Positions 3,925 through 55,419 are shown, numbered from the stretch's first letter. The stretch is 64,000 bases of DNA from Candidatus Woesearchaeota archaeon (GCA_964432435.1 CAYSNL010000001.1:10511-74510); one strand, 5' to 3'. Numbers and translations are program-made. The notes: generated from the sequence alone by a model not told the origin.

Positions 3925-4015
3925 CCCTGAGCCAGTTAGAAGATATGATCCTATCCCAGACCATTGCCCAAGTCAAATTGAGAGAACAATTAGAAGAATT
4001 AGACAAATATAAAGA

Positions 4016-4534
4016 ATGTTTGGATGTTTTAGGGGGCTCTTAAATTCAATGACATATGAAAATATGACAATTGATCAAATTTTTCAATTTGTCTATTACC
4101 GTAGAGAAAAATCTCAGGCCCAGGCTTGGGTAGAGGCCGAGAATGATTTCGCTGTTCGAGCAATAATAGGCAAATGGTTCAAGTATTTAGAAGAAGGGAT
4201 AGCTAATGATAGGTATCCAGATCCTCTAAATACTACAATTAGTCAAGAGCGGGCTGATAAGCTTATAGAAGAATTAGATGCTGATTTTATGATTGAGTCT
4301 GGAAGATTTGCAAATCTTGGAGTAGAGACTGGCCCAGAATTTTTTAGGCTAGAGCCTTATGCTAAACGAGCCTTTGCCCAAGATATTTGGTCTGTAATGA
4401 AGACAGATAAGGACATTGAGATGGAAACTGTGCAACGCCTAAATGCAGGGGAAGAGTTGCCTCCCAAACAATTCCAGTATGAAAATAGTTTTGAAGAGGA
4501 TTATGTGATTGGGCTTAGAGGGATGGAGATTTAA
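4016..4534 (+). CDS. Hypothetical protein
   Basis: 172-aa ORF; its stop overlaps the next gene start (translational coupling). Confidence 0.5.
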   Translation: MFGCFRGLLNSMTYENMTIDQIFQFVYYRREKSQAQAWVEAENDFAVRAIIGKWFKYLEEGIANDRYPDPLNTTISQERADKLIEELDADFMIESGRFANLGVETGPEFFRLEPYAKRAFAQDIWSVMKTDKDIEMETVQRLNAGEELPPKQFQYENSFEEDYVIGLRGMEI

Positions 4535-6035: not shown

Positions 6036-6048
6036 TGGGAGAGGATAT

Positions 6049-6588
6049 ATGTCATATGAGTTAGCAGCAGTTGACCCTACAATATTAAATGTAGTTTTTG
6101 GCTTAGTGGCATATCTATTTGTGCAGCTATCAAAGAGTAATAATTGGCGCAAAGCTATGCAATATGTCTATCCTATTGGTATTGCTGTATTTGCAGGGGC
6201 TGCGAAAGGAATGGGAATAGACGCCAAAGTAGAAATAAATGATGTTTTAGGAGTCTTGGGCTCTTCGCAATTAATTTGGGCAGCGGGCAAAATGACTGGT
6301 ATTGGAGAGGCATTGAAGAAAGACGGGATATCTCAAGTAGCAGATTTCTTTAGAAAGTTAGCTAATGATTATTCTACAGATTCTGAGCCAGTAAAAATAT
6401 TTGATCCAAATGGTGTAAATACTGAAGCCTTAGAAAAAGCCAGAAATGAAGTAAATGCAATAAAGTTCTTGTTTGATGGAAAGGCTATAACATTAGAGCA
6501 AGCTAGAGAAATGAAGAAAGCTTGGAATATAAAATACCCTGACCTGGCAATGGTAATGAAGCTACCTGATATAGAAGGCGTTGTATAA
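6049..6588 (+). CDS. Putative membrane protein
   Basis: Two or three hydrophobic helices at N-terminus (VVFGLVAYLFV, IGIAVFAGAA). Confidence 0.5.
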   Translation: MSYELAAVDPTILNVVFGLVAYLFVQLSKSNNWRKAMQYVYPIGIAVFAGAAKGMGIDAKVEINDVLGVLGSSQLIWAAGKMTGIGEALKKDGISQVADFFRKLANDYSTDSEPVKIFDPNGVNTEALEKARNEVNAIKFLFDGKAITLEQAREMKKAWNIKYPDLAMVMKLPDIEGVV

Positions 6589-6966: not shown

Positions 6967-6990
6967 ATTTCTAGAGAGATAAAATAACGT

Positions 6991-28232: not shown

Positions 28233-28718
28233 ATGATAAAGCACCTTAAAATAAATTATCAAATCAAAGCCCAAGAAGTTAAGCTAATAAATGAAGAAGG
28301 AGAATTCAAGGGGATACACCCAATACAGCAAGCCTTAAATATGGCTATGGCATCAGGTCTAGATTTAGTTGAAGTATCTCCAGGAACTTGTAAAATTTTA
28401 GACTATGGGAAATTCATATACGAACAAAAGAAAAAACAGACAAAGCAGAAATTGCAAGATACTTTAGAAATTAGATTGTCTCCCAATATAAATAATCATG
28501 ATGTAGAATATAAAATTAAGCATGCAAAAAGAATCCTATCCCGAGGAGACAAAATTAAACTAATTATAGTCTTTAAAGGCCGTCAAATGCAGCATACAGA
28601 TTTAGGAATTGGATTATTAAAAACTGTGACTGAAAGGCTTATAGACACAGCTATTTTAGCAGATAATCCAAAATTAGAAGGAAAATATCTAAGTGTTACA
28701 GTAGCCCCGAAAAAGTAA
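28233..28718 (+). CDS. infC: Translation initiation factor IF-3 homolog
   Basis: Full-length colinear similarity to bacterial IF3: IKAQEVKL (IRAQEVRL), GLDLVEVSP (GVDLVEISP), CKILDYGKFIYE (CRIMDYGKFLYE), FKGRQMQH (FRGREMAH), TVAPKK (VLAPKK). Confidence 0.85.
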   Translation: MIKHLKINYQIKAQEVKLINEEGEFKGIHPIQQALNMAMASGLDLVEVSPGTCKILDYGKFIYEQKKKQTKQKLQDTLEIRLSPNINNHDVEYKIKHAKRILSRGDKIKLIIVFKGRQMQHTDLGIGLLKTVTERLIDTAILADNPKLEGKYLSVTVAPKK

Positions 28719-29421: not shown

Positions 29422-29760
29422 ATGGTAATAGCATCTTGTATTTCTACAGCACGTAAATATAGTAAGTCTTCAGAGGAAAATTATAAGATAACTGCATTCC
29501 TTGTTCGTAATGGTAAGCCATTTTCTATTGCTACAAATCTTGGATGGAAACATGCTGAGGCCAGGTGCATAGACCAGGCGTCCTCAGAAAAGATAAAGAA
29601 TTCTATAATGTATGTTATTAGAATCACAAAAGAAGGATTAGGAATAGCAAAGCCTTGCAAGAAATGCCAAGGTCTAATCAAAGACACTACAATAAAGAAA
29701 GTCTATTATACAACTAACGATAATACATTAGAAACGTGGGAGTTCCATGAAACTGATTGA
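29422..29760 (+). CDS. Small cytidine/deoxycytidylate deaminase-fold protein
   Basis: HAE (WKHAEARCI) and PCxxC (AKPCKKCQGLI) zinc-binding motifs of the CDA superfamily. Confidence 0.5.
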   Translation: MVIASCISTARKYSKSSEENYKITAFLVRNGKPFSIATNLGWKHAEARCIDQASSEKIKNSIMYVIRITKEGLGIAKPCKKCQGLIKDTTIKKVYYTTNDNTLETWEFHETD

Positions 29761-35846: not shown

Positions 35847-35921
35847 GGCGGGGTGGAGCAGCGGCAGCTCGTTGGGCTCATAACCCAAAGGTCGTTGGTT
35901 CGAATCCAACCCCCGTCTCCC
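35847..35921 (+). tRNA. tRNA-Met (anticodon CAU); anticodon stem has the three G-C pairs typical of initiator tRNA. A lysidine-type tRNA-Ile2 cannot be excluded
   Basis: Acceptor GGCGGGG/CCCCGTC. D-arm GAGC-AGCGGCA-GCTC. Anticodon arm TTGGG-CTCATAA-CCCAA. T-arm GTTGG-TTCGAAT-CCAAC. Confidence 0.75.
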
Positions 35922-36307
35922 AAGACAATAATTAAAACTTTAAGAGCATAAAGGAGATGTAAAATGGAAAAACAACGCAACAAAGAAGTCCGAATTTTAG
36001 ACGACAAAGAAGGTAGTGAGCTTTTCTATTCATGGATGAAAGAATTGACATTAGACCAGCAAAACTGTATAAGAATATTCCTAAGATCAAATGATTTTAA
36101 ACATGAGTAAAACATAGGATTAAAATGAAGAAACAAACAACACATCATATTCCTAATTCAATAAAAAAAGACTTACCAAATCCTAATTGCAAATGTGGTA
36201 AACCAATGCGGATTGTGATTCAACCAGGCCAACATATTCATCCATGTCCCGTTCATCCAGACAAAGCCGTGTATGGCTTAAATATAATTTATAGAAAACC
36301 ACTAAGA

Positions 36308-36385
36308 GCAGCAATAGCTCAATTAGGTAGAGCAGATGTCTTATATACATCCAGGCTGAAGGTTCAAATCCTTCTTGCTGCACCA
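36308..36385 (+). tRNA. tRNA-Ile (anticodon UAU, reads AUA), with encoded CCA
   Basis: Acceptor GCAGCAA/TTGCTGC. D-arm GCTC-AATTAGGTA-GAGC. Anticodon arm GATGT-CTTATAT-ACATC. T-arm GAAGG-TTCAAAT-CCTTC. Discriminator A then CCA. Confidence 0.7.
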
Positions 36386-36457: not shown

Positions 36458-37342
36458 ATGGTAAACTACTTAGACTGGGTTAAAAAGATTGGAATTGATG
36501 GTCGTTTTAGTGGAAATGAATACATAGCCTGCTGCCCATTACACGGAGAGAAACATCCTAGCTTTAGTCTCAATTTACAAACAGGGTTGTGGAATTGTTT
36601 TTCTAATTGTGGTGGAGGGAATTTTGTCTCTTTAGTTCAAAAAGTATATGATGTTAGCTTATTAGAAGCAACTAAACTAATATCTGATGAGATGCCTGGA
36701 CAGATAAATTTCGACTTAGACATTGAAGAAGACAATACAAATTTAGTGCTTCCAGAGGTTAAATTCCCATTTGTTAGAAATAATTTTCCAAAATGGATAT
36801 TAGATAGAGGCTTTACCAAAGACATACTAACTAAATGGAAGTGTGGCTTTAATCCAGATAGTGGTTCATTTGTAATTTCAGTATATGATGAAAAGAAAAG
36901 ATTAGTTGGTTGGATATGCCGACAGCCTAATGGAAAAGAGCCAAAGTACATAAATTCTACGGGTCTAGAAAAATCAAAAATAGTTTTTGGCCTATATAAT
37001 ATTAAGCAGAGAAGAATAGTATGCGTAACAGAGGGGGCATTAAATACAATTTGGTTAAATCAACATGGTTTTTCTTCAGTGGCAATTTTAGGGGCAAGAC
37101 TATCAAGACGACAGGAGGAACTTTTATCAATAGCACCAATAACTGAACTAATTATTTGTTTAGACAATGATGAAGCAGGAAGAAAAGGAAGAGATGAAAT
37201 ATATGCCATAATGAAAAAATACTTTCAAATATCATTTATACAAATCCCAAATGAATACAATGATGTTCAAGACATTAAAGATCCAAAATTACTGACAAAC
37301 ATAATTAAAAACAGAACAATGTTCAAAGAAGGAGTTATTTAG
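36458..37342 (+). CDS. DnaG-like DNA primase (zinc finger + TOPRIM)
   Basis: CHC2-type zinc finger CCPLHGEKHPSFSLN near N-terminus. Confidence 0.75.
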   Translation: MVNYLDWVKKIGIDGRFSGNEYIACCPLHGEKHPSFSLNLQTGLWNCFSNCGGGNFVSLVQKVYDVSLLEATKLISDEMPGQINFDLDIEEDNTNLVLPEVKFPFVRNNFPKWILDRGFTKDILTKWKCGFNPDSGSFVISVYDEKKRLVGWICRQPNGKEPKYINSTGLEKSKIVFGLYNIKQRRIVCVTEGALNTIWLNQHGFSSVAILGARLSRRQEELLSIAPITELIICLDNDEAGRKGRDEIYAIMKKYFQISFIQIPNEYNDVQDIKDPKLLTNIIKNRTMFKEGVI

Positions 37343-38086
37343 ATGCCTGGAATTAACAGAATAAAGTCAGAAGCAGCAGACGAGAAATCACAACAATCTA
37401 GTTCAGAGCTCTGGCCAAAAGATGGAGATGAAGTATTTGGCCTAATAGTATCTGACGGGAATGATGATAATGACTTAAGATTTGATAAGTTCTATACCCA
37501 TTCTGTCCAAGGAAAAAGAGATGATGGCTCGAATCTTTGGAAGAATTCTCTCTGCCCTTCTAAAGAGGAAGAAGTATGTAAACTATGTGATAAGGATGTT
37601 AGACCAGCGAGAAAATTTGGGTTTTGGATGTATGTAAATTATATTTTACATAAAGAGAAGAAGAATGATTCCTGGGAAGCTGTGAAAAAGAGGGCCTCGG
37701 GAGAAGTACAATATAAAGAAGACATAAATGACTTTAGAGTATTTTCTCATGGGTTTGGGTCTAAAGACTATCTTTTCAATCAAGTTGTAGATATATTCAA
37801 TGAGTATGGTTCATTGAATAAATATGTTATTAGAATCAAAAGGACAGGTTCTGGTATGAAAGATACATCTTATGCTATAACCAGTACCACTAAAATATTT
37901 GAGCTGCCAAAAGAAATGCAGACTAAAGTGAAAGAATTGCCTGGGATTAGAGAATTCTTTAAAAAGCAATGGTCTCCTAGAGTTCAAACATCAGAAGACA
38001 ATAAAGATGCTAAATTATTAACTCAAGAAAATGATGAACTAGGTTTGGGAGATATAGATGAAGACCCTACAGAATCTTTGTTTTAA
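37343..38086 (+). CDS. Putative ssDNA-binding protein
   Basis: Acidic C-terminal tail ending in Phe (DELGLGDIDEDPTESLF), as in T7 gp2.5 and T4 gp32. Cys cluster CPSKEEEVCKLC. Position after primase. Confidence 0.45.
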   Translation: MPGINRIKSEAADEKSQQSSSELWPKDGDEVFGLIVSDGNDDNDLRFDKFYTHSVQGKRDDGSNLWKNSLCPSKEEEVCKLCDKDVRPARKFGFWMYVNYILHKEKKNDSWEAVKKRASGEVQYKEDINDFRVFSHGFGSKDYLFNQVVDIFNEYGSLNKYVIRIKRTGSGMKDTSYAITSTTKIFELPKEMQTKVKELPGIREFFKKQWSPRVQTSEDNKDAKLLTQENDELGLGDIDEDPTESLF

Positions 38087-38184
38087 ATTTTCTGAGTTAT
38101 AATCTAGTTCTTTAGTTCATTATTTTATAGTTTAATAGATGATTATAAGATAAGAATATTTATTTATAGTATAGTCCAAAGCAT

Positions 38185-38300
38185 AAATAGGTCCATTATG
38201 GCGCAACAGGACCTGTATTAGTATATATAAGGACCTGTATTGGACTCATTAGAGCACAAGACCTATAATGGACCTAATGGTATATAGGACCTATACTAGA
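38185..38300 (+). repeat. Iteron-like array of GGACCT-containing repeats
   Basis: GGACCTGTATT at 38209-38219 and 38231-38241; inverted copies TAGGTCCATTATGG (38188-38201) and ATAATGGACCTA (38265-38276); GGACCTATAC at 38288-38297. Flanked upstream by a very AT-rich 100 nt. Confidence 0.5.
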
Positions 38301-38313
38301 TTGAATAGAATAA

Positions 38314-39513
38314 ATGATTAATTTACTATATGATCTACAGCTAAGCGTATTAGACTCATTAGATGACGGGAATTTTATTATGACTACGGACTCTAATGTA
38401 AATGTAGCCACTGTATTGATAAAAAATTTACTTAATTTGTCTAATAACATAAAAATTTATGTTTTAGTGCCGCCAAAGTCTAAAATCCTAAACTTTAAAA
38501 ATTATTTATTAAGTGACATACAATCTTCCAATTTAGACTTTATTGAGTACAAATATTATGGAAATCCGTTCGTAGATAGGATGTCCTTTTTTAGTCGAGA
38601 TTTAATTCAATCTCTGAAGAACTTGAAAGTTGATATTGTCTATACTAATGATCCATGCAAAGTTCTGGGGTATAAGACAGTGCTATATAGTCTATTATCA
38701 AAACCGGTTCCAGTGATGTCCAGAAATCACTGGGTGACCGGAAAGACAGACTATAAGGTTCCACAATACATTGACTTTGCTCTTAGACAATGCGAAGGAG
38801 CTTTGTATTCTGATAATGCTACTTTCAATTCAAAATTTGCTGTCGATTCATTCTTATATAATGCAGAACAATACTTGAATAAAGAGACGATAGAGTCACT
38901 GTCTAAAAAATTAGATCATATAGAATGTGTAGACATAGATAAAATTGATCAATATAGAACTGATGAAAAGTTTGATGAATTTACTATGATTTTTGCAAAT
39001 AGACTTAGTTATTACACTGGATGGAAAGAGACATTAGACGCTATAAATAGACTATGGAAAAGACGAAAAGATTTTCAAGTCATAGTCCCAGACCCTGGAA
39101 ATAAATTCAAACAAGAAGACTTATTTTCTGAATATAATTTTATTAAGACAGTGAATAAAGATACTTGGACTCATGAAGATTACATAAAAACCTGTTGGAA
39201 AGTAGATGCCTGTATAGGTAACCATAAATATCCGGCTACTTGGGGCGGACTGGCTATAACAGAACCAATGGCAGCGTACAGTATTCCTATTATTCCTAAA
39301 AGACACGCTTATTTAGAAATGTTTGATTCAGACTCTCATTCTTTTTTTACTGATGAAAATGATCTTATTAGAGCCATTGAATTTTATTTAGACAATAGAG
39401 AAATTTTAGAGAAAGATAAGCTAAGAGCCAGAGCCTTTTGTGAAAAGAATCTTTCACCTCAAAAATTTGCTGAATTTATTTTAGATAAGCTTAATATGCT
39501 ATGCATATCATAA
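38314..39513 (+). CDS. GT-B (GT4-like) glycosyltransferase
   Basis: C-terminal WGGLAITEPMAAYSIPII matches the GT4 E-x7-E motif (EGFGLPVLEAMACGTPVIA type). Confidence 0.6.
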   Translation: MINLLYDLQLSVLDSLDDGNFIMTTDSNVNVATVLIKNLLNLSNNIKIYVLVPPKSKILNFKNYLLSDIQSSNLDFIEYKYYGNPFVDRMSFFSRDLIQSLKNLKVDIVYTNDPCKVLGYKTVLYSLLSKPVPVMSRNHWVTGKTDYKVPQYIDFALRQCEGALYSDNATFNSKFAVDSFLYNAEQYLNKETIESLSKKLDHIECVDIDKIDQYRTDEKFDEFTMIFANRLSYYTGWKETLDAINRLWKRRKDFQVIVPDPGNKFKQEDLFSEYNFIKTVNKDTWTHEDYIKTCWKVDACIGNHKYPATWGGLAITEPMAAYSIPIIPKRHAYLEMFDSDSHSFFTDENDLIRAIEFYLDNREILEKDKLRARAFCEKNLSPQKFAEFILDKLNMLCIS

Positions 39514-40436
39514 TAACTGGTTGTGATAAAACTGGAAAAAGTTTTTTGGCTAGAGAGTTAAGCAAACGTTTATATTTTCCAGTTATCAATAGGCTAGTTC
39601 CAAAACAAAATATTTTTATAGAATGTATTGACACGTTAACTGAATTAAAAAGTCCAATGATAATAGATAGATTTCATATAGATGAAGAAGTCTATGGACC
39701 AATAAAACGTGGAAAAAGTAGATTTGATTTTAGACAATATAAGATAATAGAGCTTTTGATGTTGATGTTAAAAACAGTTAATGTTTATTGTATAGATTCG
39801 GAAAGTTCAATTCAGTCTAGAATAAACTTATCAAAAGAAAATGAATACATATCTAGTAACGAAGTCAACATAATTTTACGGTCATATGATAATTGCTTAA
39901 GGACCAGTATTTTAACTTGGAATACGTATAAATTAGGAGATGATATTAGTCCATTAGTAAGTTTGATACAAAAACAAACACTGAATTTAAGACGCAGACT
40001 TAATTTTTTGTCCTATAGGACAATAGGAAATTTACTCGGATCTATTTTAATAGTTGGAGATAGATATGGAGACAAATTATTGCCACCTCTAATTCCATTT
40101 GGTAATAATGAGCCAGGACTAAGATTATTTTTAGCTTTAGAAAAGTCTAATCTGTCTTGGTCTGATATAATAATAACTAACTCAATTAAATTAAATAAAA
40201 ATGAAATCGGACTAGAAATTGACAATAAAAAAGCTTTAATTGAAGAATGTTCTTTGCCGAATATAAAAGTCATAGTCTGTTTGGGAAATAACGCGTATAA
40301 TAATGTATTGGCCATTAAACCAAAAATTTCGAACAATGTCATAATAAACAAAATACCTCACCCGAGTGCTTGGTTTGTCTATCAAAATAAATCCATAGAA
40401 AGTTATTCGAGACTAATAGATGCAGCAATACTTTAA
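39501..40436 (+). CDS. P-loop (deoxy)nucleotide kinase-like domain fused to a UDG-superfamily-like domain
   Basis: N-terminal IIITGCDKTGKSFLAREL Walker A. C-terminal IPHPSAWF (HPS motif B of uracil-DNA glycosylase fold) preceded by ILIVGDRYGDK in the motif A position. Confidence 0.45.
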   Translation: MHIIITGCDKTGKSFLARELSKRLYFPVINRLVPKQNIFIECIDTLTELKSPMIIDRFHIDEEVYGPIKRGKSRFDFRQYKIIELLMLMLKTVNVYCIDSESSIQSRINLSKENEYISSNEVNIILRSYDNCLRTSILTWNTYKLGDDISPLVSLIQKQTLNLRRRLNFLSYRTIGNLLGSILIVGDRYGDKLLPPLIPFGNNEPGLRLFLALEKSNLSWSDIIITNSIKLNKNEIGLEIDNKKALIEECSLPNIKVIVCLGNNAYNNVLAIKPKISNNVIINKIPHPSAWFVYQNKSIESYSRLIDAAIL

Positions 40437-42384
40437 AAAATCAATGACGTTGGTTAAGTCTAAATTAGACTTTTCAGATCTTTTAAGGTTTATTGCAAAG
40501 TCACAAAGCCTAGTCATAGATACTGAGACTTCAGGTCTAAGACTATGGCAAGATGATTTTGTGTCTGCTATTGGGATTGGAGATATAGACAGACAATTTT
40601 TTCTAGATTTGCGTCCTGATTGTTTGGATTATGAAATTAGTTTAAGTGAACTATTTGACTCTTTAAGAAAGACTAAAGTTATTATTGGCCATAATATAAA
40701 ATTTGACTTAGCCGGCCTATTAAGACTAGGATACGAGGTTCCAGATAATCAAGAAATTCATGACACAATTGTAATGGCTAGGTTGTTATCAATAGAAAGA
40801 TTTCCTAAGTTAGGTCTCACTCCTTTAATCCAACAGTACATTTCAGAGTTTGGTAGTCAATATGATATAGACTTTAAGCAGTTCTTAAAGACTAATAAAA
40901 TAAAGCTGTATTCTCAGTCCCCTAGTTTAGAGCTTGGGATCTACTGTTTAAATGATGTTTACTATACAGCTAGTCTATATGAAAAATTTAAACAATCATT
41001 AGTTTCTTTAAACTTGGTTGGACTTTGGAATCATGAGATTAAAGTAACTAAGACAGTTTGGAAAATGGAAAAACAAGGAGTTTTAATAGACAAGAAATAT
41101 TGTAGCACGGCCTTAAGTGTAATTAGCTTAAAGTCTAAGCAATTGGAGTCTGAAATTAACGAAGTGGCTGGTGAAGATGTAAACTTAGGAAGTAACAAAC
41201 AGCTATCAAAATTTTTTAGGGGTCTTAAATTAGAGGCTCCAACAAAAACTAAGAAGGGGGGCGAAAGTTGGGGAGAGGCTTCTTTAATTTTATTAGACCA
41301 TCCAGTAGCTAAGAAATTGTTATCTTGGAGAGGACTTCAAAAATTAAAGACATCATATTTTGAGACATACTTAGAAAGAGAAAGTCCATTACATTGCTCA
41401 TTTAAAAACTGGGGTACTGTTACTGGACGGTTTTCTTGTGTTGATCCTAATTTTCAACAGCTACCTAAAGAATTGACTAAAATTTTTGATGAAGATGAGA
41501 CTAAAGAACTGTCAGAATTTCAAAAGGCTGCCATAGCCTTAGTGAAGGCTGATAAAGAACGCCAAGGAGGCGGTAAACTTTTAATAAAGTCTGTGTCTTC
41601 ATATGAAGATGATATATTTGATGAAGAGAAACACATTTCTGCTAAGAGGTCTATAGTTCCTAGAGATGGAAATGTTTTTCTTAGTTTTGACTATTCTCAA
41701 ATGGAACTTAAGATTTTATTTTTTTATCTAAACAATGATGAAGCTAGACAATATTTGAGTGATCCAGACTGGGATGGGCATTCTTGGGTGGCCACTAAAA
41801 TTTGGGGGATTTCAGATAAAGATCCTAGTTTTCCAGCTTTCCGAAAATTAGCCAAGGCTATAAACTTTGGAATTATATACGGAGAAGGTGATAGACTATT
41901 AGCGGCTCAACTAGGGAAGACTGTTAACGAAGCTAAGAAGTTTAGAGAAGAGTATTATGCTAAAATTCCTGGAATAAGAGATCTGATTAATGGGATTCAT
42001 AAAAAGGTACAGACTAGAGGATATGTTTTCAATTACTTTGGACGGAGATATTATGCAGACCAAGACAGAGAATATGTTTTATTAAATTATTTAATCCAAG
42101 GAACGAGCGCTGATTTAATTAAAAATAGAATGGTGGCGATTGATAATGATTTAGAATTAAGGTCTATTGGACTAAAGCTAATCTTACAAATTCATGATGA
42201 ACTAATTTTTGAATGTCCAAAAGATAAGATTGATTATTCAGTTAAACTAGTTAAACAGATTCTAGAATTTCCAGTTCTAAAGGTTCCATTGGCCTCTAAA
42301 GCATATATTCACTATCCTAGTTTGGCTAGTAAATTTGATTATGGATTAAATTGGAGAGATAATGCTGGACTTTCAATCAATTGA
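40420..42384 (+). CDS. Family A DNA polymerase (Pol I-like) with 3'-5' exonuclease domain
   Basis: Exo I LVIDTETSGL; motif B RKLAKAINFGIIYG; motif C LQIHDELIFE. Confidence 0.9.
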   Translation: MQQYFKKSMTLVKSKLDFSDLLRFIAKSQSLVIDTETSGLRLWQDDFVSAIGIGDIDRQFFLDLRPDCLDYEISLSELFDSLRKTKVIIGHNIKFDLAGLLRLGYEVPDNQEIHDTIVMARLLSIERFPKLGLTPLIQQYISEFGSQYDIDFKQFLKTNKIKLYSQSPSLELGIYCLNDVYYTASLYEKFKQSLVSLNLVGLWNHEIKVTKTVWKMEKQGVLIDKKYCSTALSVISLKSKQLESEINEVAGEDVNLGSNKQLSKFFRGLKLEAPTKTKKGGESWGEASLILLDHPVAKKLLSWRGLQKLKTSYFETYLERESPLHCSFKNWGTVTGRFSCVDPNFQQLPKELTKIFDEDETKELSEFQKAAIALVKADKERQGGGKLLIKSVSSYEDDIFDEEKHISAKRSIVPRDGNVFLSFDYSQMELKILFFYLNNDEARQYLSDPDWDGHSWVATKIWGISDKDPSFPAFRKLAKAINFGIIYGEGDRLLAAQLGKTVNEAKKFREEYYAKIPGIRDLINGIHKKVQTRGYVFNYFGRRYYADQDREYVLLNYLIQGTSADLIKNRMVAIDNDLELRSIGLKLILQIHDELIFECPKDKIDYSVKLVKQILEFPVLKVPLASKAYIHYPSLASKFDYGLNWRDNAGLSIN

Positions 42385-43249
42385 TTCTGCCTATACTGAG
42401 ATATTAAACATCTTAGATAAAGACGGATTTTTAAATAAGAGACGAAATGGAGAAGTAAAAGAATGCTATCATTTAATGATGTGTTTGTCTAATCCAAGAC
42501 ACAGAGTAATTCAAAATTCAAGCAGAAAGATAAGTCTATCAATGTTAGTCGGAGAATTTTTTTGGATTTTGTTTGGTAGAGATGATTTGGATTTTATATC
42601 CTTCTATAATTCAAAAATGATTGAATACTCCGATAATGGAAAGTCTTTATTTGGGGCATATGGAAAGCGTTTGACTAGTCAATGGTCTGGAGTTATAGAA
42701 AGAATCTTATCTGATAAACTAACTAGACAGGCAGTATTACCGATTATAGATAAAAGTGACTCTACGGCTATGACTAAAGATTTTCCATGTAATAATCTTC
42801 TTCATTTTTGGAGTCAAGACGGCACTAGTCTAAATTTAACCGTGTATATTAGATCTCAGGATATGTTTTTAGGATTTCCGTATGATGTTTTTCATTGGAC
42901 AATGTTTTTAGAGAACATGGCTATGACTTGTAATATGAGACTTGGGAAATACTATCATATAATGCAAAATTGTCATTATTACATTAAAGACTATGAAAAA
43001 GTTCAGTTGATAAAACAAGCTAATAGTTTTGTTAGTTTACCAATGAACTCTATATTAGAAAGTTGTTTTGATAAGTCTGTAGAAAATAGACTAATAGAAT
43101 CAGAATCAAAAACTCGGCAGAACGGGGTTTATGTAAACTTATTCGATGAAAAGTCAATTTGGTCAGACTTTATAAAAATAGTTCAGCATAGAAAAAGCAA
43201 TAAAAAAGTTTCTTTATTTGATGGAGCTTTAACTAATGTCTATAGATAG
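42362..43249 (+). CDS. ThyA-family pyrimidine C5-modifying enzyme, predicted deoxycytidylate hydroxymethylase
   Basis: Aligns with thymidylate synthase: FGAYGKRLTSQW (YGKQWRAW); DFPCNNLLHFW (APCHAFFQFY, catalytic Cys retained, PCH to PCN); RSQDMFLGFPYDVFHW (RSCDVFLGLPFNIASY). The substrate-specifying Asn is replaced by Asp, as in T4 dCMP hydroxymethylase. NCHYY (DTHLY). Confidence 0.65.
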   Translation: MLDFQSIDSAYTEILNILDKDGFLNKRRNGEVKECYHLMMCLSNPRHRVIQNSSRKISLSMLVGEFFWILFGRDDLDFISFYNSKMIEYSDNGKSLFGAYGKRLTSQWSGVIERILSDKLTRQAVLPIIDKSDSTAMTKDFPCNNLLHFWSQDGTSLNLTVYIRSQDMFLGFPYDVFHWTMFLENMAMTCNMRLGKYYHIMQNCHYYIKDYEKVQLIKQANSFVSLPMNSILESCFDKSVENRLIESESKTRQNGVYVNLFDEKSIWSDFIKIVQHRKSNKKVSLFDGALTNVYR

Positions 43250-43580
43250 ATTATTCAAAGATCAAGTTAGATTTACAGATAAGATCATTAATGATTTAAG
43301 TGTGAATGTATCTAAAACTGAGTTAATAAAAGAATATTTGCTGTCTTTGCATGATGAACTATCAGAAATTCTTCATTGCACAAATTGGAAATGGCATAGA
43401 GAAGATTACGGATCAGACATAGACTATGAGAATTTATATGTGGAATTAATAGACACACAAAAGTTTTTATGGGGGCTGATGCATATTTGTGGAATGGACA
43501 TAAATAAGTTTGAAGAAGTGTATGATAAGAAAAGTAAAATTGTAGAAGAGCGTTTAATGAAATTGAAAGGGAAACAATAG
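43236..43580 (+). CDS. MazG-like all-alpha NTP pyrophosphohydrolase (candidate dCTP/dUTP-clearing enzyme)
   Basis: 114 aa all-helical with acidic cluster (ELSEILHCTNWKWHREDYGSDIDYEN...ELIDTQKFLWGL); position between the ThyA-like gene and ThyX. Confidence 0.45.
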   Translation: MSIDRLFKDQVRFTDKIINDLSVNVSKTELIKEYLLSLHDELSEILHCTNWKWHREDYGSDIDYENLYVELIDTQKFLWGLMHICGMDINKFEEVYDKKSKIVEERLMKLKGKQ

Positions 43581-44363
43581 TTGAGTCAATTAATTCTACC
43601 TAAGGTATTCATCATAGGAGAGTCTAAGATTGATTCTGTTGGTTTGCAACAATTATTAAACCATTTGAGTGTTCCTGCATGGAAATCAGATGCTGACACC
43701 GATGTAGAAAAACTTCTGGAAGTCTATGGAAGGGCTTGCTATAAGTCATTTGATGTTATTCTAAATCCTAATTTAACTCGTGTAAGAAAGCACAATGATG
43801 AATACATAAAGAACATTATAGAAAAAGGAGACGGTAGTGTATTAGAACATGGTATGATTAATTTCTTTTTTGCTGATGTGAGTAGAGTTTTTACCCATGA
43901 GTTAGTTAGGCATCGTGTCGGAACAGCCATAAGTCAAGAGAGCTTAAGATTTGTTAGATTGACAGATTTGAACTGGTACGCCCCAATTTGTATTCAAGAG
44001 GATGTTCAGGCTATGGAGATTTTTTCAAGGACACTCAATAGTTTAAGTCAACTTCAAAAAGACTTGGCAGACCTATATAATATAGATAACATGTCTTTTG
44101 AGAAGAAAAAGGAATTAACTTCAGCTTTTAGACGTCTTGCCCCTGATGGGTTAGCTACAAATATCGGGTGGTCTGCAAATATTAGAACAATTAGACATGT
44201 ATTGGAGATGAGGACTAATCCCTCAGCTGAGGAAGAAATCCGATTAGTCTTTTCTCAAGTAGGAAAACTAATGAGGGAAAGATATAAGACGTTGTTTGAT
44301 GACTATGAGACCGAGATTGTTAATGGAATTGATTGGTACAAAACTAAACATAGAAAAGTATAA
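43581..44363 (+). CDS. thyX: Flavin-dependent thymidylate synthase ThyX
   Basis: ThyX signature RHR-x7/8-S: HELVRHRVGTAISQES; TTG start. Confidence 0.8.
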   Translation: MSQLILPKVFIIGESKIDSVGLQQLLNHLSVPAWKSDADTDVEKLLEVYGRACYKSFDVILNPNLTRVRKHNDEYIKNIIEKGDGSVLEHGMINFFFADVSRVFTHELVRHRVGTAISQESLRFVRLTDLNWYAPICIQEDVQAMEIFSRTLNSLSQLQKDLADLYNIDNMSFEKKKELTSAFRRLAPDGLATNIGWSANIRTIRHVLEMRTNPSAEEEIRLVFSQVGKLMRERYKTLFDDYETEIVNGIDWYKTKHRKV

Positions 44364-44375
44364 GGAGATCTAGAA

Positions 44376-44606
44376 TTGCAAGAGCCATTAAGTTTTGAAA
44401 AAATAATTACTGACTGTAGAGAGAAGCTGACTAAACTTCAAGCCACACTCGAGAGTGTACATCAAATAATATTGACCATATCTCAGTCTTATTACTGGAC
44501 TCCTGAATGGCAAGCCAAAGAGAAACGAGCAGACGAGGATGCTCGGGCTGGAAGGTCAAAACAGTTCAAATCTGCCGAAGAATTGATCAGGGAGTTGAAG
44601 TCATAG
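44376..44606 (+). CDS. Hypothetical small protein
   Basis: 76-aa ORF with GGAGA RBS. Confidence 0.35.
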   Translation: MQEPLSFEKIITDCREKLTKLQATLESVHQIILTISQSYYWTPEWQAKEKRADEDARAGRSKQFKSAEELIRELKS

Positions 44607-44766
44607 TCTATGCCCGAGTGGACATTGGGGAGCTCAGATGGCTTCAAGGCTGATTATAAGGCAAAGCCACCGATGTTCAGCCGAGGAAATATGAATAAGG
44701 CTCAAATGATTGATGATGTAGAAGATGCTATAAGCATTCTTATATGTGCTTTATTGAGGAATAACC

Positions 44767-45246
44767 ATGGTAAATAGACCTTCATGGGATGATTACTTCT
44801 TGGGGATTGCTAAAGTTGTAAGTAGCAGGGCTTCATGCCCTAGGGCAAGCTCAGGATGTGTTTTAGTTCTAGATAAGAGAATTTTGTCTACAGGTTATAA
44901 TGGGGCTCCTGTTGGAGAAAAGACGTGTTTAGATATAGGATGTAATGTAAAAGACAGACATTGTGTCAGGGCAGTACATGGCGAAAGAAATGCCATTTTG
45001 TGGGCTGAAAAATATTTTTCAGTAAAGCAACTAAAGGAAGCGACTTTGTACGAATACTATGCAGCTCATAGCGATGAATCAGTAAAGAATTATTATCCTT
45101 CTCAAGATTCTGTAGAGTCATTAGACTTTTTTCCGTGCAAACCATGTAAAGAATTGATGTTAGATAGAAAAATCAAAGAAGTAATTTGTCAATATGGGAA
45201 TGGAATTATAAAAGTCTATAAGAACTATCATATTGGAGAAAAGTAA
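44767..45246 (+). CDS. Deoxycytidylate (dCMP) deaminase
   Basis: HGERNAILWA (HAE-type zinc ligand motif) and FPCKPCKELM (PCxxC). Confidence 0.75.
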   Translation: MVNRPSWDDYFLGIAKVVSSRASCPRASSGCVLVLDKRILSTGYNGAPVGEKTCLDIGCNVKDRHCVRAVHGERNAILWAEKYFSVKQLKEATLYEYYAAHSDESVKNYYPSQDSVESLDFFPCKPCKELMLDRKIKEVICQYGNGIIKVYKNYHIGEK

Positions 45247-45390
45247 AATGGGAAATATTCAAGATTTATCTATTTATGATCCAGATATTTGGCTTAAGAT
45301 GTGTGTGACTTTAAAGATTGAGCTGCCAGACGAGGTTTGGAAAAAGTATATAGATGGCCTATATCCTAGTTTATTTTTTAGGGGGTAGAA

Positions 45391-45594
45391 ATGTCGCAAG
45401 CTTATAAGTGTGATATGTGTAAATGTTTATTTGATTATAGACCAACAAGAGAATTAGAGTTTTCAGAGCATTACGGGCCAGAGCCTGATGCTAAGAGAGT
45501 TCATGCAATAGCTGAAATGAGAGGTGATTATTGTAGAGATTGCTTAGCGGAGATTTTAAGAAATAAGATAAATTATTTGGGAAGACAAAAATGA
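45391..45594 (+). CDS. Small zinc-ribbon protein
   Basis: CDMCKC...CRDC. Confidence 0.35.
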   Translation: MSQAYKCDMCKCLFDYRPTRELEFSEHYGPEPDAKRVHAIAEMRGDYCRDCLAEILRNKINYLGRQK

Positions 45595-45658
45595 AAGAAA
45601 AGATTGGTAAAAAGCTAAATTTTGACCCATTATTCGGAGAAGACGGGGAGTAAATAAA

Positions 45659-45871
45659 TTGGCAAAAATTTCTCAGCAACTTTCTTTTACATTTAGAATC
45701 GGGGTAGATCAAAAAGGTCAATTTGCCAAAGTCACAGTACAAATTGATGAAATAGATACAGAATTACCAATAAAGGAGCAATTAGAGAAAGTTGATGGCG
45801 CTCTAGATAAAGTCTGGGCATACATAAAGAAGAAAGTTGATGCCCAGATAGATGAAGTATTAGATAATTGA
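45659..45871 (+). CDS. Hypothetical small protein
   Basis: 70-aa ORF; TGAATG junction with next gene. Confidence 0.35.
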   Translation: MAKISQQLSFTFRIGVDQKGQFAKVTVQIDEIDTELPIKEQLEKVDGALDKVWAYIKKKVDAQIDEVLDN

Positions 45872-46687
45872 ATGAAATCTTATTCTTTGTTAAATATAAC
45901 TGGGAATAAGAGAAGCATAGCAGACCAAATTTTTTCTATTTTACCATTAGATTGTTCAGGATTAACTTATGTTGATCCATTTTTTGGGTCTGGAGGAGCA
46001 TATTTCAATGTCTCAAGAAATTTTTTAAGCTATGAGTGTTCTGATTTATTTCCGCTTATTATAAATTTTATATGCCAAGATTTTTCAAATGAAATTTTAA
46101 GCGATTATTATAACAAAGTAACACAAAAATGGGACTTCCATAATAAAGATGCTTATTATAATTTTAGAGAATTTTGGAATGAAAATAGAGAAAAAGGTCC
46201 TAGAATTAAATATATAGGTTTTATGCTTTTAGCGGGAGCATGTATTAATGGTCTATATAGATTTGGCCCAAATGGTTTTAATCAGTCGTATGGAAATAGG
46301 ATAATGAAGAAAGAACAACTTTTAGACTATAAGAAACATATTAAGTCTAATAGTAGTTTTTCAATAAAGAATTTTTTAGACATAGTCCCGTCTAAAACTT
46401 CAGTATTGTATTTAGACCCCCCATATTCTGATACAGGGGCTTTAACTCAAATGTTTGGATTTTGGGAATTGGGTTTGGCGCAAGATTTAAATCTTATAAG
46501 ACTAATTAAGTCTCAAGATGAGTGTAACGGTAAGTTTATTCTTAGCACTATTAAAAATTCTTTTTTACATAATGAATTAAAAGACACATTTAGAAATATT
46601 GACATAAAGAAAACTTATAAAGTAAGTGTAGGAAAGCATTTAGCTTCGTCTCATGAAGAAATTATAGTTACAAATCTAGGAGATTAA
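45872..46687 (+). CDS. Dam-like N6-adenine DNA methyltransferase
   Basis: Motif I DPFFGSGGAYF and motif IV LYLDPPYSDT. Confidence 0.75.
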   Translation: MKSYSLLNITGNKRSIADQIFSILPLDCSGLTYVDPFFGSGGAYFNVSRNFLSYECSDLFPLIINFICQDFSNEILSDYYNKVTQKWDFHNKDAYYNFREFWNENREKGPRIKYIGFMLLAGACINGLYRFGPNGFNQSYGNRIMKKEQLLDYKKHIKSNSSFSIKNFLDIVPSKTSVLYLDPPYSDTGALTQMFGFWELGLAQDLNLIRLIKSQDECNGKFILSTIKNSFLHNELKDTFRNIDIKKTYKVSVGKHLASSHEEIIVTNLGD

Positions 46688-46689
46688 TC

Positions 46690-47625
46690 TTGTCGAAGAA
46701 GAATGATTCAATAGAAGAATTGCTAAAAAACGGCTTAATGAAATATGGCTCCGATAAGAGTTTGTTATTCGATAGGGTAGCATTTGGGATAGAGTCGTTA
46801 GACAAGCTAGTAGGCGGCGGGATACCTAAAAAGAGAATGTCATTGTTTACTGGCCCCCCAAGTTCAGGGAAATCATATTTAGCATCACAAGCTGTAGTTA
46901 GTGAACAAAAGAATGGTGGAGTAGCAGCTTGGATAGATACGGAGTTATCTTGGGATCCAGTTTGGATGGAAAGATGTGGGGTTGATATTGATAAAATTTA
47001 TTTAGTTCAGCCGACAACAGGAGAAGAAGCATTTGATACGATTAAAGTGTTAATGAATGAAAAAGTAGGAGTTATTGTTCTAGACAGTATTGCAGGAATA
47101 GTCCCGACAGCGGTGCAAGAAGAAGATTTTTCATACAATCCTGTAGCATGGCAGGCTAGGTTTGTTAATCAATCTATTCCTAAACTATTTCCTTCATTAA
47201 AGAACGGGTCAGCCTTAATCGTAATAAATCAAGTCCGTTCTAGTCTTGGGCCCGTGTCATTAGATAATATGCCAGGAGGAGTGGCACAGCAATTCTTTGC
47301 ACATTTCATATTGCAGATTAGGCGAGAAGGCTGGATAGAAGATGCTGATAAAAACAAGATGGGGTTTGACATAAAAATAAGTTGTAAGAAAAGTAAGGTT
47401 GGAGGACAGCCGTATCAATCTTGCACAGTCCCATTTAGACTAGAAGGTGGGATTGATCTTTTGGAAACTGTCATCAGAGAAGCATTAGACAAAGGTATAA
47501 TAGAACAAGCTAGGGCTTGGTTTAAATGGGGAGATCTTAAAGTGATTGGGATGAAAGGAGTTAAAGAATATTTGATAAATAATCCAGATAAAAAATTAGA
47601 GTTGGAAAGTTTAATCAAAGAATAG
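46690..47625 (+). CDS. RecA/RadA-family recombinase
   Basis: Walker A FTGPPSSGKSYLASQ, RecA-like core; TTG start. Confidence 0.65.
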   Translation: MSKKNDSIEELLKNGLMKYGSDKSLLFDRVAFGIESLDKLVGGGIPKKRMSLFTGPPSSGKSYLASQAVVSEQKNGGVAAWIDTELSWDPVWMERCGVDIDKIYLVQPTTGEEAFDTIKVLMNEKVGVIVLDSIAGIVPTAVQEEDFSYNPVAWQARFVNQSIPKLFPSLKNGSALIVINQVRSSLGPVSLDNMPGGVAQQFFAHFILQIRREGWIEDADKNKMGFDIKISCKKSKVGGQPYQSCTVPFRLEGGIDLLETVIREALDKGIIEQARAWFKWGDLKVIGMKGVKEYLINNPDKKLELESLIKE

Positions 47626-47813
47626 AATTAAATATGACTTGTCAATCTTGTAGTGGAAAGCTTACAGCGGTTAAGTCACTGCTGGAATCTAATGATTTTA
47701 CTGCAGTAGTTTTCTATAAAAGAATTGATAATAATAATAAGTATCCAATATATTGGTGGTATGATTGCTATTTGTGGGGCAGTTATTTGGACAATAATTG
47801 GGAGTTTATATAA

Positions 47814-53097: not shown

Positions 53098-54585
53098 ATG
53101 TATCAAGTCATCGGGAAAAATTATATAAATGGTCAATGGGTGGAGCTCAAGAATCATTTTTATTCATTAAATCCGTCTAATACAAATGAAGATATCGGGA
53201 TTTTTCCTCAGTCTGTATATTCTGAAGTAGATTTAGCTGTTGAGGCTGCAAAAGATGCCTTTAGATCTTGGAAAAGTTTGTCTAGAATTAATAGGGCGGA
53301 GTATTTTAATGCATTTGTAAAAAATGTGGAGAAAAATTTTGATGAACTTGTGCATTTAATGTGTAGGGAAAGCGGAAAACAAATAAATGAATGCAAAGCT
53401 GATGTAATTGAAGGGATTCATATGGCTCAATATAACTTTGGTAGAGCAAGGATGCCATATGGAGAAGTAATGGCATCAGAAATTGCTAGTAAGGATGCAT
53501 TTATGTTGCGAAAACCAAAAGGGGTAATCGCAGCAATAACTCCTTGGAATTTTCCGTTTGCTATTCCTTTATGGTTAATTATTCCATCTTTGCTAGAAGG
53601 AAACACTGTTGTATTCAAACCGTCAGAAGACACTCCTGCTGTAGGAGAATTTTTAGTTAAAATGTTTGATGAAGTTAGTTTACCCCCAGGAGTATTAAAT
53701 CTAGTTCAGGGAGATGGGGGGACTGGATGGGATTTAGTTACAAATACTGATATTAAGGTAGTGTTATTTACTGGCTCCTATGCTGTTGGGTCTAAAATTA
53801 GGAAAGAATGTGCTGGTTCTATAGACAAAATGGCAGTGTGCGAGATGGGCGGGAAAAACGCTATTATTGTGTTGGAAGATGCAGATTTGGATTTAGCAGT
53901 AAATGCATGCATTTTAAGTGCCTTCAAAACTGCTGGTCAAAGATGTGTATCTGCTTCCAGATTGATAGTTCATAGGTCTATTTTGAAAGAATTTGAGGAT
54001 AAATTTGTAAATAAGGCTAAAAATTTAATAGTTGGGGATCCTCTTGATTCAAGCACCTTTATGGGGCCAGTAATAAATCTAGAGGCTATTAATAAAATTT
54101 TGTCTTATAATGATATGGCTCGGAAAGAGGGTGTTGAAATATTATTAAATGGTTCCAGACTTGTAGAAGGGAAATATTGGGATGGGTATTTCATGTCTCC
54201 ATTTGTATATGAAACGGAAAATAGATTTTCTAAAGTCTTGAAGGAAGAGGTGTTTGGGCCTCATGTGGCTATTATCCCATTTGATACATTAGAAGATGCA
54301 GTCAGTCTATATAATAGTACTGATTATGGTTTTGCATTAGCTGTAATATCTAATGATTATCGTAAGATTAAATATTTACAGCAGAATTGTGATTTTGGAG
54401 TGGGATATGTAAATCTTCCCAGCATAGGCGCAGAAGTTCATTTGCCATTTGGTGGTACAAAGAAGAGTGGTTCTGGGATGCCTTCAGCCTCTGCTTTAAT
54501 TGATGCTGTAACACACAGAGTAGCCTGGACTGTTAACTATGCAGATGAAATTCAATTAGCCCAAGGATTAAATGCAAAGGTATGA
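53098..54585 (+). CDS. NAD(P)-dependent aldehyde dehydrogenase
   Basis: ALDH Glu site CEMGGKNAI, Cys site FKTAGQRCVSASR, cofactor-binding FTGSYAVGSKI, and WNFPFAIP. Confidence 0.9.
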   Translation: MYQVIGKNYINGQWVELKNHFYSLNPSNTNEDIGIFPQSVYSEVDLAVEAAKDAFRSWKSLSRINRAEYFNAFVKNVEKNFDELVHLMCRESGKQINECKADVIEGIHMAQYNFGRARMPYGEVMASEIASKDAFMLRKPKGVIAAITPWNFPFAIPLWLIIPSLLEGNTVVFKPSEDTPAVGEFLVKMFDEVSLPPGVLNLVQGDGGTGWDLVTNTDIKVVLFTGSYAVGSKIRKECAGSIDKMAVCEMGGKNAIIVLEDADLDLAVNACILSAFKTAGQRCVSASRLIVHRSILKEFEDKFVNKAKNLIVGDPLDSSTFMGPVINLEAINKILSYNDMARKEGVEILLNGSRLVEGKYWDGYFMSPFVYETENRFSKVLKEEVFGPHVAIIPFDTLEDAVSLYNSTDYGFALAVISNDYRKIKYLQQNCDFGVGYVNLPSIGAEVHLPFGGTKKSGSGMPSASALIDAVTHRVAWTVNYADEIQLAQGLNAKV

Positions 54586-54628: not shown

Positions 54629-54865
54629 ATGATATGGCAAGATATTGTAATAATGATTGGCCAAGTCTTATTTTCAATTTCGTTAATTCCAATTTTGCGG
54701 GCTAAAACTAAGCCTCCAAAGTTTACGTGTTTTTTAACAGCCAGTATTTTAGGCAGTTTCTTTATAACATTTGGGACATTGTCTTTATGGATGTCAATGT
54801 TTTCATGTCTCCTAAATGGAACTTTATGGTGTTGGATAGGATTACAGAAAGGCATAAGAATATGA
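54629..54865 (+). CDS. Small integral membrane protein
   Basis: 78 aa, two hydrophobic helices; ATGA coupling to the HAD gene. Confidence 0.35.
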   Translation: MIWQDIVIMIGQVLFSISLIPILRAKTKPPKFTCFLTASILGSFFITFGTLSLWMSMFSCLLNGTLWCWIGLQKGIRI

Positions 54866-55419
54866 ATATAGCTATAGATATTGAAGGGACTGTTGCTGAT
54901 GTGCACGAAGCATTTTTACAATGGTTTAATACTAAGTATGACACTAATTTTACGATTAAAGATATTGACAATTGGAATATAGCAAAGACAAAATTAGGAA
55001 TAACAACATCAGAGTTTATTGAATCTCTTAGAAAGCTATGGAAACAACAATGCACTATGACTTTGACAGATAGTAATATCCCAAAGATAATTGATAGGTT
55101 AATAGATTCAGGGCATAGAATTTATTTTGTGACTGCTCATTATGAGGTCGCGCCACAAATTATTGATTGGATTAATAAGAATAGACTAAAACATTCGGGC
55201 TTCATGGCTGTAAAGAATACAGAAGTAAAGAAGATTCTTTCATTTGATTTATTTATTGATGATTGCCCATTATTAGTGGAATCTTTAGGGCACCGACTTT
55301 TTTTATATAATAGACCATATAATACAAATACAAAAGCTATTAATCGTTTTACTGATTTTTCAGAATTAACTAATCGAATAAACATGTGGCCAAGGAGGGG
55401 AGAGAATGAAAGCTTGTAA
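54862..55419 (+). CDS. HAD-superfamily phosphatase / 5'(3')-deoxyribonucleotidase-like
   Basis: N-terminal DxDxT motif MNIAIDIEGTV. Start set to the ATG at 54862 rather than the track start 54727. Confidence 0.55.
   Translation: MNIAIDIEGTVADVHEAFLQWFNTKYDTNFTIKDIDNWNIAKTKLGITTSEFIESLRKLWKQQCTMTLTDSNIPKIIDRLIDSGHRIYFVTAHYEVAPQIIDWINKNRLKHSGFMAVKNTEVKKILSFDLFIDDCPLLVESLGHRLFLYNRPYNTNTKAINRFTDFSELTNRINMWPRRGENESL

Follow-up and report, generated by a model that had tools for sequence, protein, structure and literature searches.

A candidate T4-style pathway for sugar-modified cytosine in the replication operon of an uncultured phage

Why would a replication operon that already holds ThyX, a source of thymidylate, also encode an enzyme of the thymidylate synthase (ThyA) superfamily, and why would both lie with a glycosyltransferase (GT) and with a nucleotide kinase fused to a uracil-DNA glycosylase (UDG)-fold domain? 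This question is raised by the gene module at positions 38314-46687 of CAYSNL010000001.1:10511-74510. The window analysed is the full 64,000-nt stretch, with coordinates counted from its first letter, and it is treated here as the genome of an uncultured tailed phage. The answer favoured, with a probability of roughly 0.65, is that the replication operon encodes a two-stage cytosine hypermodification pathway in the style of phage T4, in which both the modified base and its sugar are predictions.

Gene module and predicted pathway

Eight module open reading frames (ORFs) are present, all on the plus strand. An earlier note on this DNA had described seven co-directional genes within 8 kb; its coordinates, strand and clustering hold, but its own list contains eight genes.

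38314..39513, +, GT-B/GT4-like glycosyltransferase, 399 aa, candidate DNA 5-hydroxymethylcytosine (5hmC) glycosyltransferase
39501..40436, +, kinase-UDG fusion, 311 aa, candidate 5-hydroxymethyl-dCMP (5hm-dCMP) kinase with a family-4-like UDG-fold domain
40420..42384, +, family A DNA polymerase (PolA) with a 3'-5' exonuclease domain
42362..43249, +, ThyA-superfamily enzyme (ThyA paralog), 295 aa, with a 5hm-dCMP synthase signature
43236..43580, +, short all-alpha NTP pyrophosphatase (NTPase) of the dUTPase_2 family, 114 aa, candidate dCTPase/dUTPase
43581..44363, +, ThyX flavin-dependent thymidylate synthase
44767..45246, +, dCMP deaminase
45872..46687, +, Dam-family N6-adenine DNA methyltransferase

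The six genes from GT to ThyX (38314-44363) overlap successively by 13, 17, 23 and 14 nt and then abut, forming an operon-like string.

In the predicted pathway, the dUTPase_2-family NTPase would, judging from its signatures and homology, convert dCTP (and dUTP) to the monophosphate. With methylene-tetrahydrofolate, the ThyA paralog would then turn dCMP into 5hm-dCMP, which the kinase domain, resembling YorR and thymidylate kinase (TMPK), would raise to the diphosphate and the host NDP kinase to the triphosphate. PolA, which would need to accept the modified dCTP, would incorporate 5-hydroxymethyl-deoxycytidine in place of dC. The dCMP deaminase would meanwhile supply dUMP from dCMP for ThyX to make dTMP, balancing the C and T precursor pools and thereby leaving the ThyA paralog free for cytosine chemistry. 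After replication, the GT would, as its synteny and fold suggest, move a sugar from a host nucleotide-diphosphate (NDP) sugar to the 5-hydroxymethyl group of the base in DNA. The analogy of phage PolA-UDG fusions makes it most likely that the UDG-fold domain clears uracil-type bases from the fork and/or ties the kinase to the replisome; Dam would add N6-methyladenine separately. This order of events, with pre-replicative 5hm-dCMP synthesis followed by sugar transfer, had been proposed in the earlier note; it is kept as a prediction that now draws on the residue code of the ThyA paralog, structural models of the GT and kinase, and the synteny of GT loci.

Enzymes of the module and their conserved neighbourhood

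The ThyA paralog matches Pfam PF00303 (Thymidylat_synt, E=7e-20) and falls far under every NCBIfam thymidylate synthase cut-off (best 65 bits vs 327). Its closest PDB sequence match is the CMP 5-hydroxymethylase MilA (5b6d, 4e-20), and the top-scoring PDB entry named as a thymidylate synthase, presumably the L. casei N229D mutant, has Asp at the position shared with the query. To assign a product, the residues of an experimentally calibrated code were compared (Lee et al., NAR 2026; PMC13326640). In this code, given in E. coli numbering, N177D marks dCMP as the substrate, L143D/E provides the water access that yields a hydroxymethyl instead of a methyl product, and D169N marks flavin-dependent 5-hydroxy-dCMP synthases (PMC13326640). 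The residues at E. coli positions 143/146/169/177 are as follows.

E. coli ThyA: L/C/D/N
T4 gp42: D/C/D/D
Window ThyA paralog: D140/C143/D167/D175
ViI-like BSP101: D/C/D/N

In the window protein, D140 within 'TKDFPC' aligns to E. coli L143, the catalytic C143 to C146, and D175 within 'GFPYDVF' to both E. coli N177 and T4 gp42 D179. Asp is kept at the position of E. coli D169 (D167), a column that is invariant in all relatives. The pattern is that of T4 gp42 at all diagnostic positions. It departs from that of thymidylate synthases by having Asp rather than Asn177 and Leu143 at both positions, and from that of 5-hydroxy-dCMP synthases of the RB69 gp48 and DLP3 gp80 type by having no Asn at D169. 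BSP101, with Asp143 and Asn177, shows what is expected of a dUMP hydroxymethylase. By the full published code, the ThyA paralog is predicted to be a 5hm-dCMP synthase. The Asn-to-Asp change of dCMP hydroxymethylases that had been read from the sequence earlier is D175, and two further diagnostic positions agree with it. A ThyA-based pattern scan of IMG/VR found nothing.

The remaining nucleotide enzymes are consistent with such a role. ThyX matches Pfam Thy1 (1e-33), scores 88.7 bits against the TIGR02170 equivalog cut-off of 87.9, and shows the RHR...S motif in its translation; the dCMP deaminase matches Pfam dCMP_cyt_deam_1 (3e-14) and phrog_174 (7e-31). Because ThyX exceeds the equivalog cut-off and the deaminase is clear, the supply of dTMP is independent of the ThyA paralog, which bears out the earlier proposal that ThyX provides dTMP and that the paralog is not needed for thymidylate. 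The family A polymerase is likewise as described (Pfam DNA_pol_A 2e-73 and DNA_pol_A_exo1 3e-16; phrog_17 2e-98). Dam matches Pfam MethyltransfD12 (1e-24) and falls just short of the TIGR00571 cut-off (111.6 vs 114.85 bits); it is a separate, second DNA modification outside the cytosine pathway. For GATC, 105 sites were counted vs a shuffle mean of 199, a gap that probably reflects one-strand vs two-strand counting.

The 114-aa NTPase matches phrog_173 (5e-6) and is 37% identical to its ortholog in L004, a related metagenomic contig. By itself it has no Pfam match, and a single-sequence PDB search returned noise only, so that a profile was needed. Three of its orthologs match Pfam dUTPase_2 (27.5-35.4 bits vs a cut-off of 22.9), as does T4 gp56 (25.4 bits), and a four-sequence profile aligns to the dimeric dUTPases 2cje/1w2y (2e-5) and, by hhalign, to T4 gp56 (probability 83%, E=9e-6). 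The metal-binding motifs ExxE...ExxD (E41/E44 and E70/D73) are invariant. By these profile comparisons the protein is a compact gp56 homolog and a short member of dUTPase_2, and the earlier description of it as a MazG-like, non-orthologous replacement of gp56 is withdrawn.

In the kinase-UDG fusion, the N-terminal domain (about aa 1-165) carries a P-loop, GCDKTGKS, and a DRF motif and resembles thymidylate kinases. A 15-homolog profile of the fusion matches SPbeta YorR (2axp, E=8e-17), and Thymidylate_kin (PF02223) is matched in 6 of the 15 homologs. The C-terminal domain (about aa 170-311) exceeds the Pfam UDG cut-off (27.3 vs 24.3 bits); as an isolated domain it gave noise only in a single-sequence PDB search, again requiring a profile. 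In an AlphaFold2 model with a predicted local distance difference test score (pLDDT) of 90.7, Foldseek relates the N-domain to YorR (3kb2, TMt 0.76) and the C-domain to family-4 UDG/UdgX (1vk2, 1ui1 and 4zbx). The earlier reading of the protein as a P-loop, dNMP-kinase-like enzyme fused to a UDG-fold domain is therefore upheld by the YorR profile, the Pfam UDG score and the model. The fusion is the sole nucleotide-kinase-like P-loop protein in the window. T4 gp1 gave no tblastn match in the window, and 1dek/1del lie outside the top 50 fold matches of the fusion; tblastn of the kinase against phages M6, ViI, SP10 and PhiW-14 at E<=1e-3 likewise gave no match.

Canonical family 4 UDGs have a GE[AG]PG motif and an Fe-S cluster with four Cys ligands. 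In the UDG half of the fusion, the PFG, TN and HPS elements are invariant among the 15 homologs, motif A reads G[DE][KR]YG, and no Cys is invariant. The domain would thus have the fold and profile of family 4, but not the canonical motif A or the Fe-S Cys ligands. From what is known of the UDG superfamily, the invariant Asn suggests a uracil-type rather than a cytosine-type pocket, and the Cys pattern suggests that the Fe-S cluster is absent. [quoted passage not shown] The UDG domain more likely serves replication or repair and is peripheral to the cytosine pathway.

To characterize the GT, 33 homologs of 40-55% identity were collected, of which nine carry a precomputed PF00534 assignment; the window protein also has a QTMAN_N match at E=4e-4. 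The structure prediction that had been suggested as a check for the 38314-39513 product was run with 32 homologs and yielded an AlphaFold2 model with a pLDDT of 92.6. Its top Foldseek matches in the PDB are retaining GT-B/GT4 enzymes, namely GlgM (6tvp), the mannosyltransferase 7qsg, MshA (3c4q), BshA (3mbo) and SPS (6kih), at E about 1e-12, with a probability of 1.00 and TM-scores of 0.64-0.73 to MshA, BshA, 7qsg and GlgM. The model confidently predicts a two-Rossmann-domain GT-B fold and a GT4-like enzyme. Neither a Pfam AGT match nor similarity to T4 b-gt was found in the comparison with the T4 alpha- and beta-glucosyltransferase families, in agreement with the earlier assignment to GT4 rather than to alpha/beta-GT. 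Synteny, described below, makes 5hmC DNA a candidate acceptor.

Among viral models, those nearest to the GT are a protein of an uncultured Caudovirales member and GTs of Arthrobacter phages, the Kitkat GT being the best viral structural match; further down the list are the GT of SP-15 and the DNA alpha-GT of a cyanophage. In the one Arthrobacter phage record viewed, KeaneyLin, no GT lies near the ThyA homolog. The alpha-GT of phage G, considered as a relative, showed no similarity to the window GT, and tblastn of the GT against phage records gave no match.

To determine whether the module is conserved, contigs with GT homologs were scanned with profiles of four module proteins. Downstream sequence is visible at 16 loci, and in every one the GT homolog is followed by a kinase(-UDG) gene, twice with a homing-endonuclease-like insert in between. 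ThyA homologs that cover the active-site region have the D/C/D/D pattern in 13 of 13 cases, a count that excludes a 14th homolog (L015) cut by the contig end. A dUTPase_2 gene is present in most GT loci, usually directly upstream of the GT. The polymerase belongs to family B (PolB) in six GT contigs with listed genes (L011-L017), in contrast to family A in the window, which argues that the module is conserved independently of the replicase. Moreover, at least 12 non-identical contigs, with two polymerase families between them, carry the same gene set, which indicates that the clustering is not due to chance. In L004, the closest relative, whose ThyA is 49% identical to that of the window, the kinase, UDG, PolA, ThyA, dUTPase_2 and deaminase genes are kept, with kinase and UDG as separate genes. 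In place of the window GT, this contig has an RGP-family protein (5268-6236; 184 bits, UDP-arabinopyranose-mutase-like) and a 356-aa protein with no detectable family (6967-8037). The former hints at an arabinose-type decoration, and the filling of the GT slot by another set is consistent with a swappable sugar module, typical of DNA hypermodification. The 356-aa protein was considered as a GT relative and set aside (hhalign probability only 0.7%).

The contigs with GT homologs come from groundwater, soil and other metagenomes. Selfish elements break up the module at 3649-4104 and 5096-8992 of L011 and at 11268-11786 of L017. Between the GT and kinase-UDG genes of relatives lie an HNH-like ORF and a NUMOD3 ORF, and within the family B polymerase an intein with LAGLIDADG domains. 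L017 also encodes a 113-aa protein matching Pfam dGTP_diPhyd_N (5955-6296), distinct from the ORF at 8100-8519 that matches the dUTPase_2 profile of the module.

Weighing the alternatives

Several observations weigh against a complete T4-style pathway. The GT scores 23.5 bits with Pfam Glycos_transf_1 (PF00534; E=4.4e-5), under the gathering score of 26.4, the first Glu of its GT4 EX7E motif is seemingly replaced, and the module holds no NDP-sugar biosynthesis gene. The 114-aa NTPase is a candidate dCTPase/dUTPase that may act on dCTP or on dUTP. Identity between the ThyA paralog and gp42 is only about 15%, a relationship that BLAST misses, and most of the calibration of the residue code comes from Straboviridae, with a few other enzymes besides. 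The kinase is no homolog of T4 gp1; furthermore, DLP3 and RB69 hold a YorR-like kinase besides a gp1-type dNMP kinase, and kinases of the YorR-like type may have a function other than phosphorylating a modified dNMP. Finally, two of the related contigs (L014 and L017) carry the GT, kinase-UDG and PolB genes but no ThyA homolog in the visible 10 kb.

Some of these points would fit a pathway in which 5hmC DNA is made but the GT acts on a protein, a small molecule or a nucleotide, leaving a final base that is plain 5hmC or otherwise modified. GT4 enzymes, as the PDB matches illustrate, mostly act on lipids, sugars and small molecules, and the window GT is sub-threshold for the Pfam family; in addition, the published gene list of Stenotrophomonas phage AXL3 and the 19-kb stretch of it that was viewed name no GT, yet the DNA of this phage is broadly restriction-resistant. 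This alternative is nevertheless rather unlikely given where the gene lies: it shares a translational overlap with the kinase-UDG gene, it has no virion or cell-wall genes as neighbours, and its homologs adjoin kinase-UDG genes at every one of the 16 loci, within replication and nucleotide modules of both PolA and PolB phages. The different, RGP-family set in the GT slot of L004 is also what would be expected of swappable DNA sugar writers. That the ThyA paralog instead makes 5-methyl-dCMP (as in XP12), 5-hydroxy-dCMP (as in RB69 and DLP3) or a ribonucleotide product (as for MilA) is improbable. Its kinship to characterised members is remote (15-32% identity), its best PDB sequence match, MilA, is a CMP enzyme, and the diagnostic code derives from a limited experimental set; by that code, however, L143D counters methylation and the kept D169 counters 5-hydroxylation. 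A replication operon with a dNTPase and a dCMP deaminase favours a deoxynucleotide substrate, and a methyl group would offer no acceptor to the tightly linked GT. Very improbable is a module that modifies thymine, in which dUMP hydroxymethylation would be followed by DNA-level kinase and transferase steps as in ViI, M6 and SP10. Such a scheme could call on the P-loop kinase, on the UDG domains that accompany the polymerases of the T-hypermodified phages SP-15 and YerA41, and on the ViI-like dUMP hydroxymethylases, which after phage G are the best-scoring cultured-phage relatives of the ThyA paralog. The specificity residue, however, is Asp175, whereas the ViI-like BSP101 keeps Asn; the kinase is TMPK/YorR-like and finds no counterpart by tblastn in M6, ViI, SP10 or PhiW-14; no aGPT-Pplase or pyridoxal-phosphate enzyme was found among the module proteins scanned; and the phage has its own ThyX for dTMP.

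A further reading concerns the fusion, which could be a DNA-level partner of the GT instead of just combining a 5hm-dCMP kinase with a uracil repair enzyme. In one version, the UDG fold would flip or recognise the modified pyrimidine in duplex DNA and present it to the GT; in another, the P-loop domain would receive the base from it and add a phosphate to the hydroxymethyl group, in the manner of 5-HMUDK on 5-hydroxymethyluracil; in a milder version, the UDG domain would tether modified-dNTP synthesis to the replisome. Such a partnership would explain why the GT and fusion are inseparable neighbours in every locus examined and why RB69 and DLP3 keep a YorR-like kinase in their GT clusters despite having a gp1-type kinase. 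The idea is unlikely, and the T4-style pathway, with the fusion as a candidate 5hm-dCMP kinase, remains the preferred reading.

Genome setting and related systems

Protein scans of the window gave a weak portal match and a large replication/nucleotide-metabolism block. Identical proteins are filed at NCBI on a contig of about 110 kb, within a metagenome-assembled genome labelled 'Candidatus Daviesbacteria bacterium'. The same stretch was assembled independently in three sequencing runs, and three related contigs are listed as viral in IMG/VR. The genes are co-directional and the GC content is low (about 30-42%). Ten large plus-strand ORFs at 2376-25291, including products of 1416 and 1011 aa, had essentially no PHROG match, only one matching a PHROG family of unknown function; this presumed virion module would be very distant from catalogued phages. 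Megablast of the 8.4-kb module region against 50,697 phage records gave no match, and a promoter/terminator scan of 37300-47800 gave chance-level results only. Other features of the window are listed below.

26458-26662 and 35847-36385, four tRNA genes: tRNA-His, tRNA-Leu(TAA), tRNA-Met and tRNA-Ile(TAT)
27491-27955, +, sigma-70 region-2 protein
28233-28718, +, complete IF-3 (Pfam IF3_N + IF3_C)
29422-29760, +, second cytidine/dCMP-deaminase-family ORF, 112 aa, about 15 kb upstream of the module dCMP deaminase
53098-54585, +, aldehyde dehydrogenase (452 bits), unusual in a phage
54727-55419, +, NT5C-type 5'-deoxynucleotidase
58081-60354, +, class II-like ribonucleotide reductase with a TSCPD domain

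Both the nucleotidase and the reductase may contribute to the nucleotide economy of the module. Among representative genomes, IF-3 finds its best matches, at about 45% identity, nearly all in Sphingobacteriales/Bacteroidota and not in bacteria of the candidate phyla radiation (CPR). This weakly suggests a Bacteroidota host rather than the CPR label, and the NCBI label of the contig, 'Candidatus Daviesbacteria', may be a case of mis-binning.

Among cultured phages, the kinase-UDG fusion recurs at full length beside a ThyA of the same D/D type and a dCMP deaminase in AXL3, Bacillus phage G and the Actinomycetia phage DSL-LC01.

Fusion homologs: phage G gp315, AXL3 gp29 and one in DSL-LC01
Module gene stretches: AXL3 gp27-30 and gp50 (L009); phage G gp313-319 (L008); DSL-LC01 (L010)

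These loci differ from the window in their low identity (only 22-33%) and in having no homolog of the window GT by tblastn. AXL3 also shares an NTP pyrophosphatase, ThyX and PolA with the window. Of 37 restriction enzymes, only two cut AXL3 virion DNA, both at A/T-only sites, and the 35 with G/C in their sites were resisted (PMC7504290); its authors read the kinase and ThyA genes as ordinary thymidylate synthesis (PMC7504290). In phage G, a gene of Pfam AGT, the T4 alpha-glucosyltransferase family, lies in the same cluster as the kinase-UDG and Asp-ThyA genes, and in DSL-LC01 a GT and a UDP-galactopyranose mutase lie about 7 kb downstream. The restriction resistance of AXL3 and the gene context in phage G and DSL-LC01 suggest, indirectly, that the kinase-UDG/Asp-ThyA core makes modified cytosine DNA. 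In the records of all three phages, the fusion and the Asp-ThyA carry the labels 'thymidylate kinase' and 'thymidylate synthase'; judged by the published code, both genes probably belong to a 5hm-dCMP pathway. If the pathway proposed here is correct, these genes would need re-annotation, and the unexplained restriction resistance of AXL3 DNA would gain a concrete candidate cause. Sugar-writing enzymes for DNA would then also gain a new family that is spread across environments, and the known routes of cytosine hypermodification a new kinase-UDG accessory. Enzymes of this kind are useful for labelling 5hmC and for building restriction- or CRISPR-resistant phage DNA.

A narrow full-text literature search returned no description of this GT family or of the kinase-UDG fusion. 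A UDG in a related setting has been described in SP-15/YerA41-type phages, where it is fused to PolA, and elsewhere UDG acts in trans with phage replicative polymerases (bioRxiv 10.1101/2025.03.26.645540). As in the window, a type-4 UDG fold is there encoded right beside the replicative polymerase, in phages with modified pyrimidines; the window UDG, in contrast, is fused to a nucleotide kinase and not to the polymerase.

GT4-like DNA glycosyltransferases are already documented (PMC13326640; bioRxiv 10.1101/2023.12.21.572611), among them in the arabinosyl- and hexosyl-5-hydroxycytosine clusters of RB69, Acinetobacter phage DLP3 and Rhizobium phage RL38J1 (PMC13326640). These clusters combine a ThyA homolog, a YorR/TMPK-like 'nucleotide kinase' and GT-B/GT4-like GTs, with the dCTPase encoded elsewhere (PMC13326640). 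Their proven or proposed DNA GTs share the PDB neighbours 3mbo, 3c4q, 6kih and 7qsg with the window GT, and their kinase, which takes the same position within the cluster, shares 3kb2 with the window kinase. The two systems differ in that the ThyA with D169N makes 5-hydroxy-dCMP with flavin, whereas the window enzyme keeps D169; in the NDP-arabinose/Galf biosynthesis genes, which are present there and missing from the module here; and in the kinase, which there is not fused to UDG.

The closest parallel in logic is T4, with which the module shares most enzyme superfamilies: its ThyA paralog has the gp42 code and its NTPase belongs to the Pfam family of gp56. T4 also has a dCMP deaminase (cd), a separate thymidylate synthase (td) and dam, functions that the window likewise holds. 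The differences lie in the parts. The window kinase is YorR/TMPK-like and fused to UDG rather than gp1-like, its GT is GT4-like where T4 has alpha- and beta-glucosyltransferases, its dTMP would come from ThyX and not from a ThyA-type Td, its polymerase belongs to family A, and its genes from GT to ThyX form one overlapping operon. The type of pathway is therefore the textbook one of T4, whereas this GT family and its strictly paired kinase-UDG fusion may be new; the advance lies in the parts and their distribution and not in the principle.

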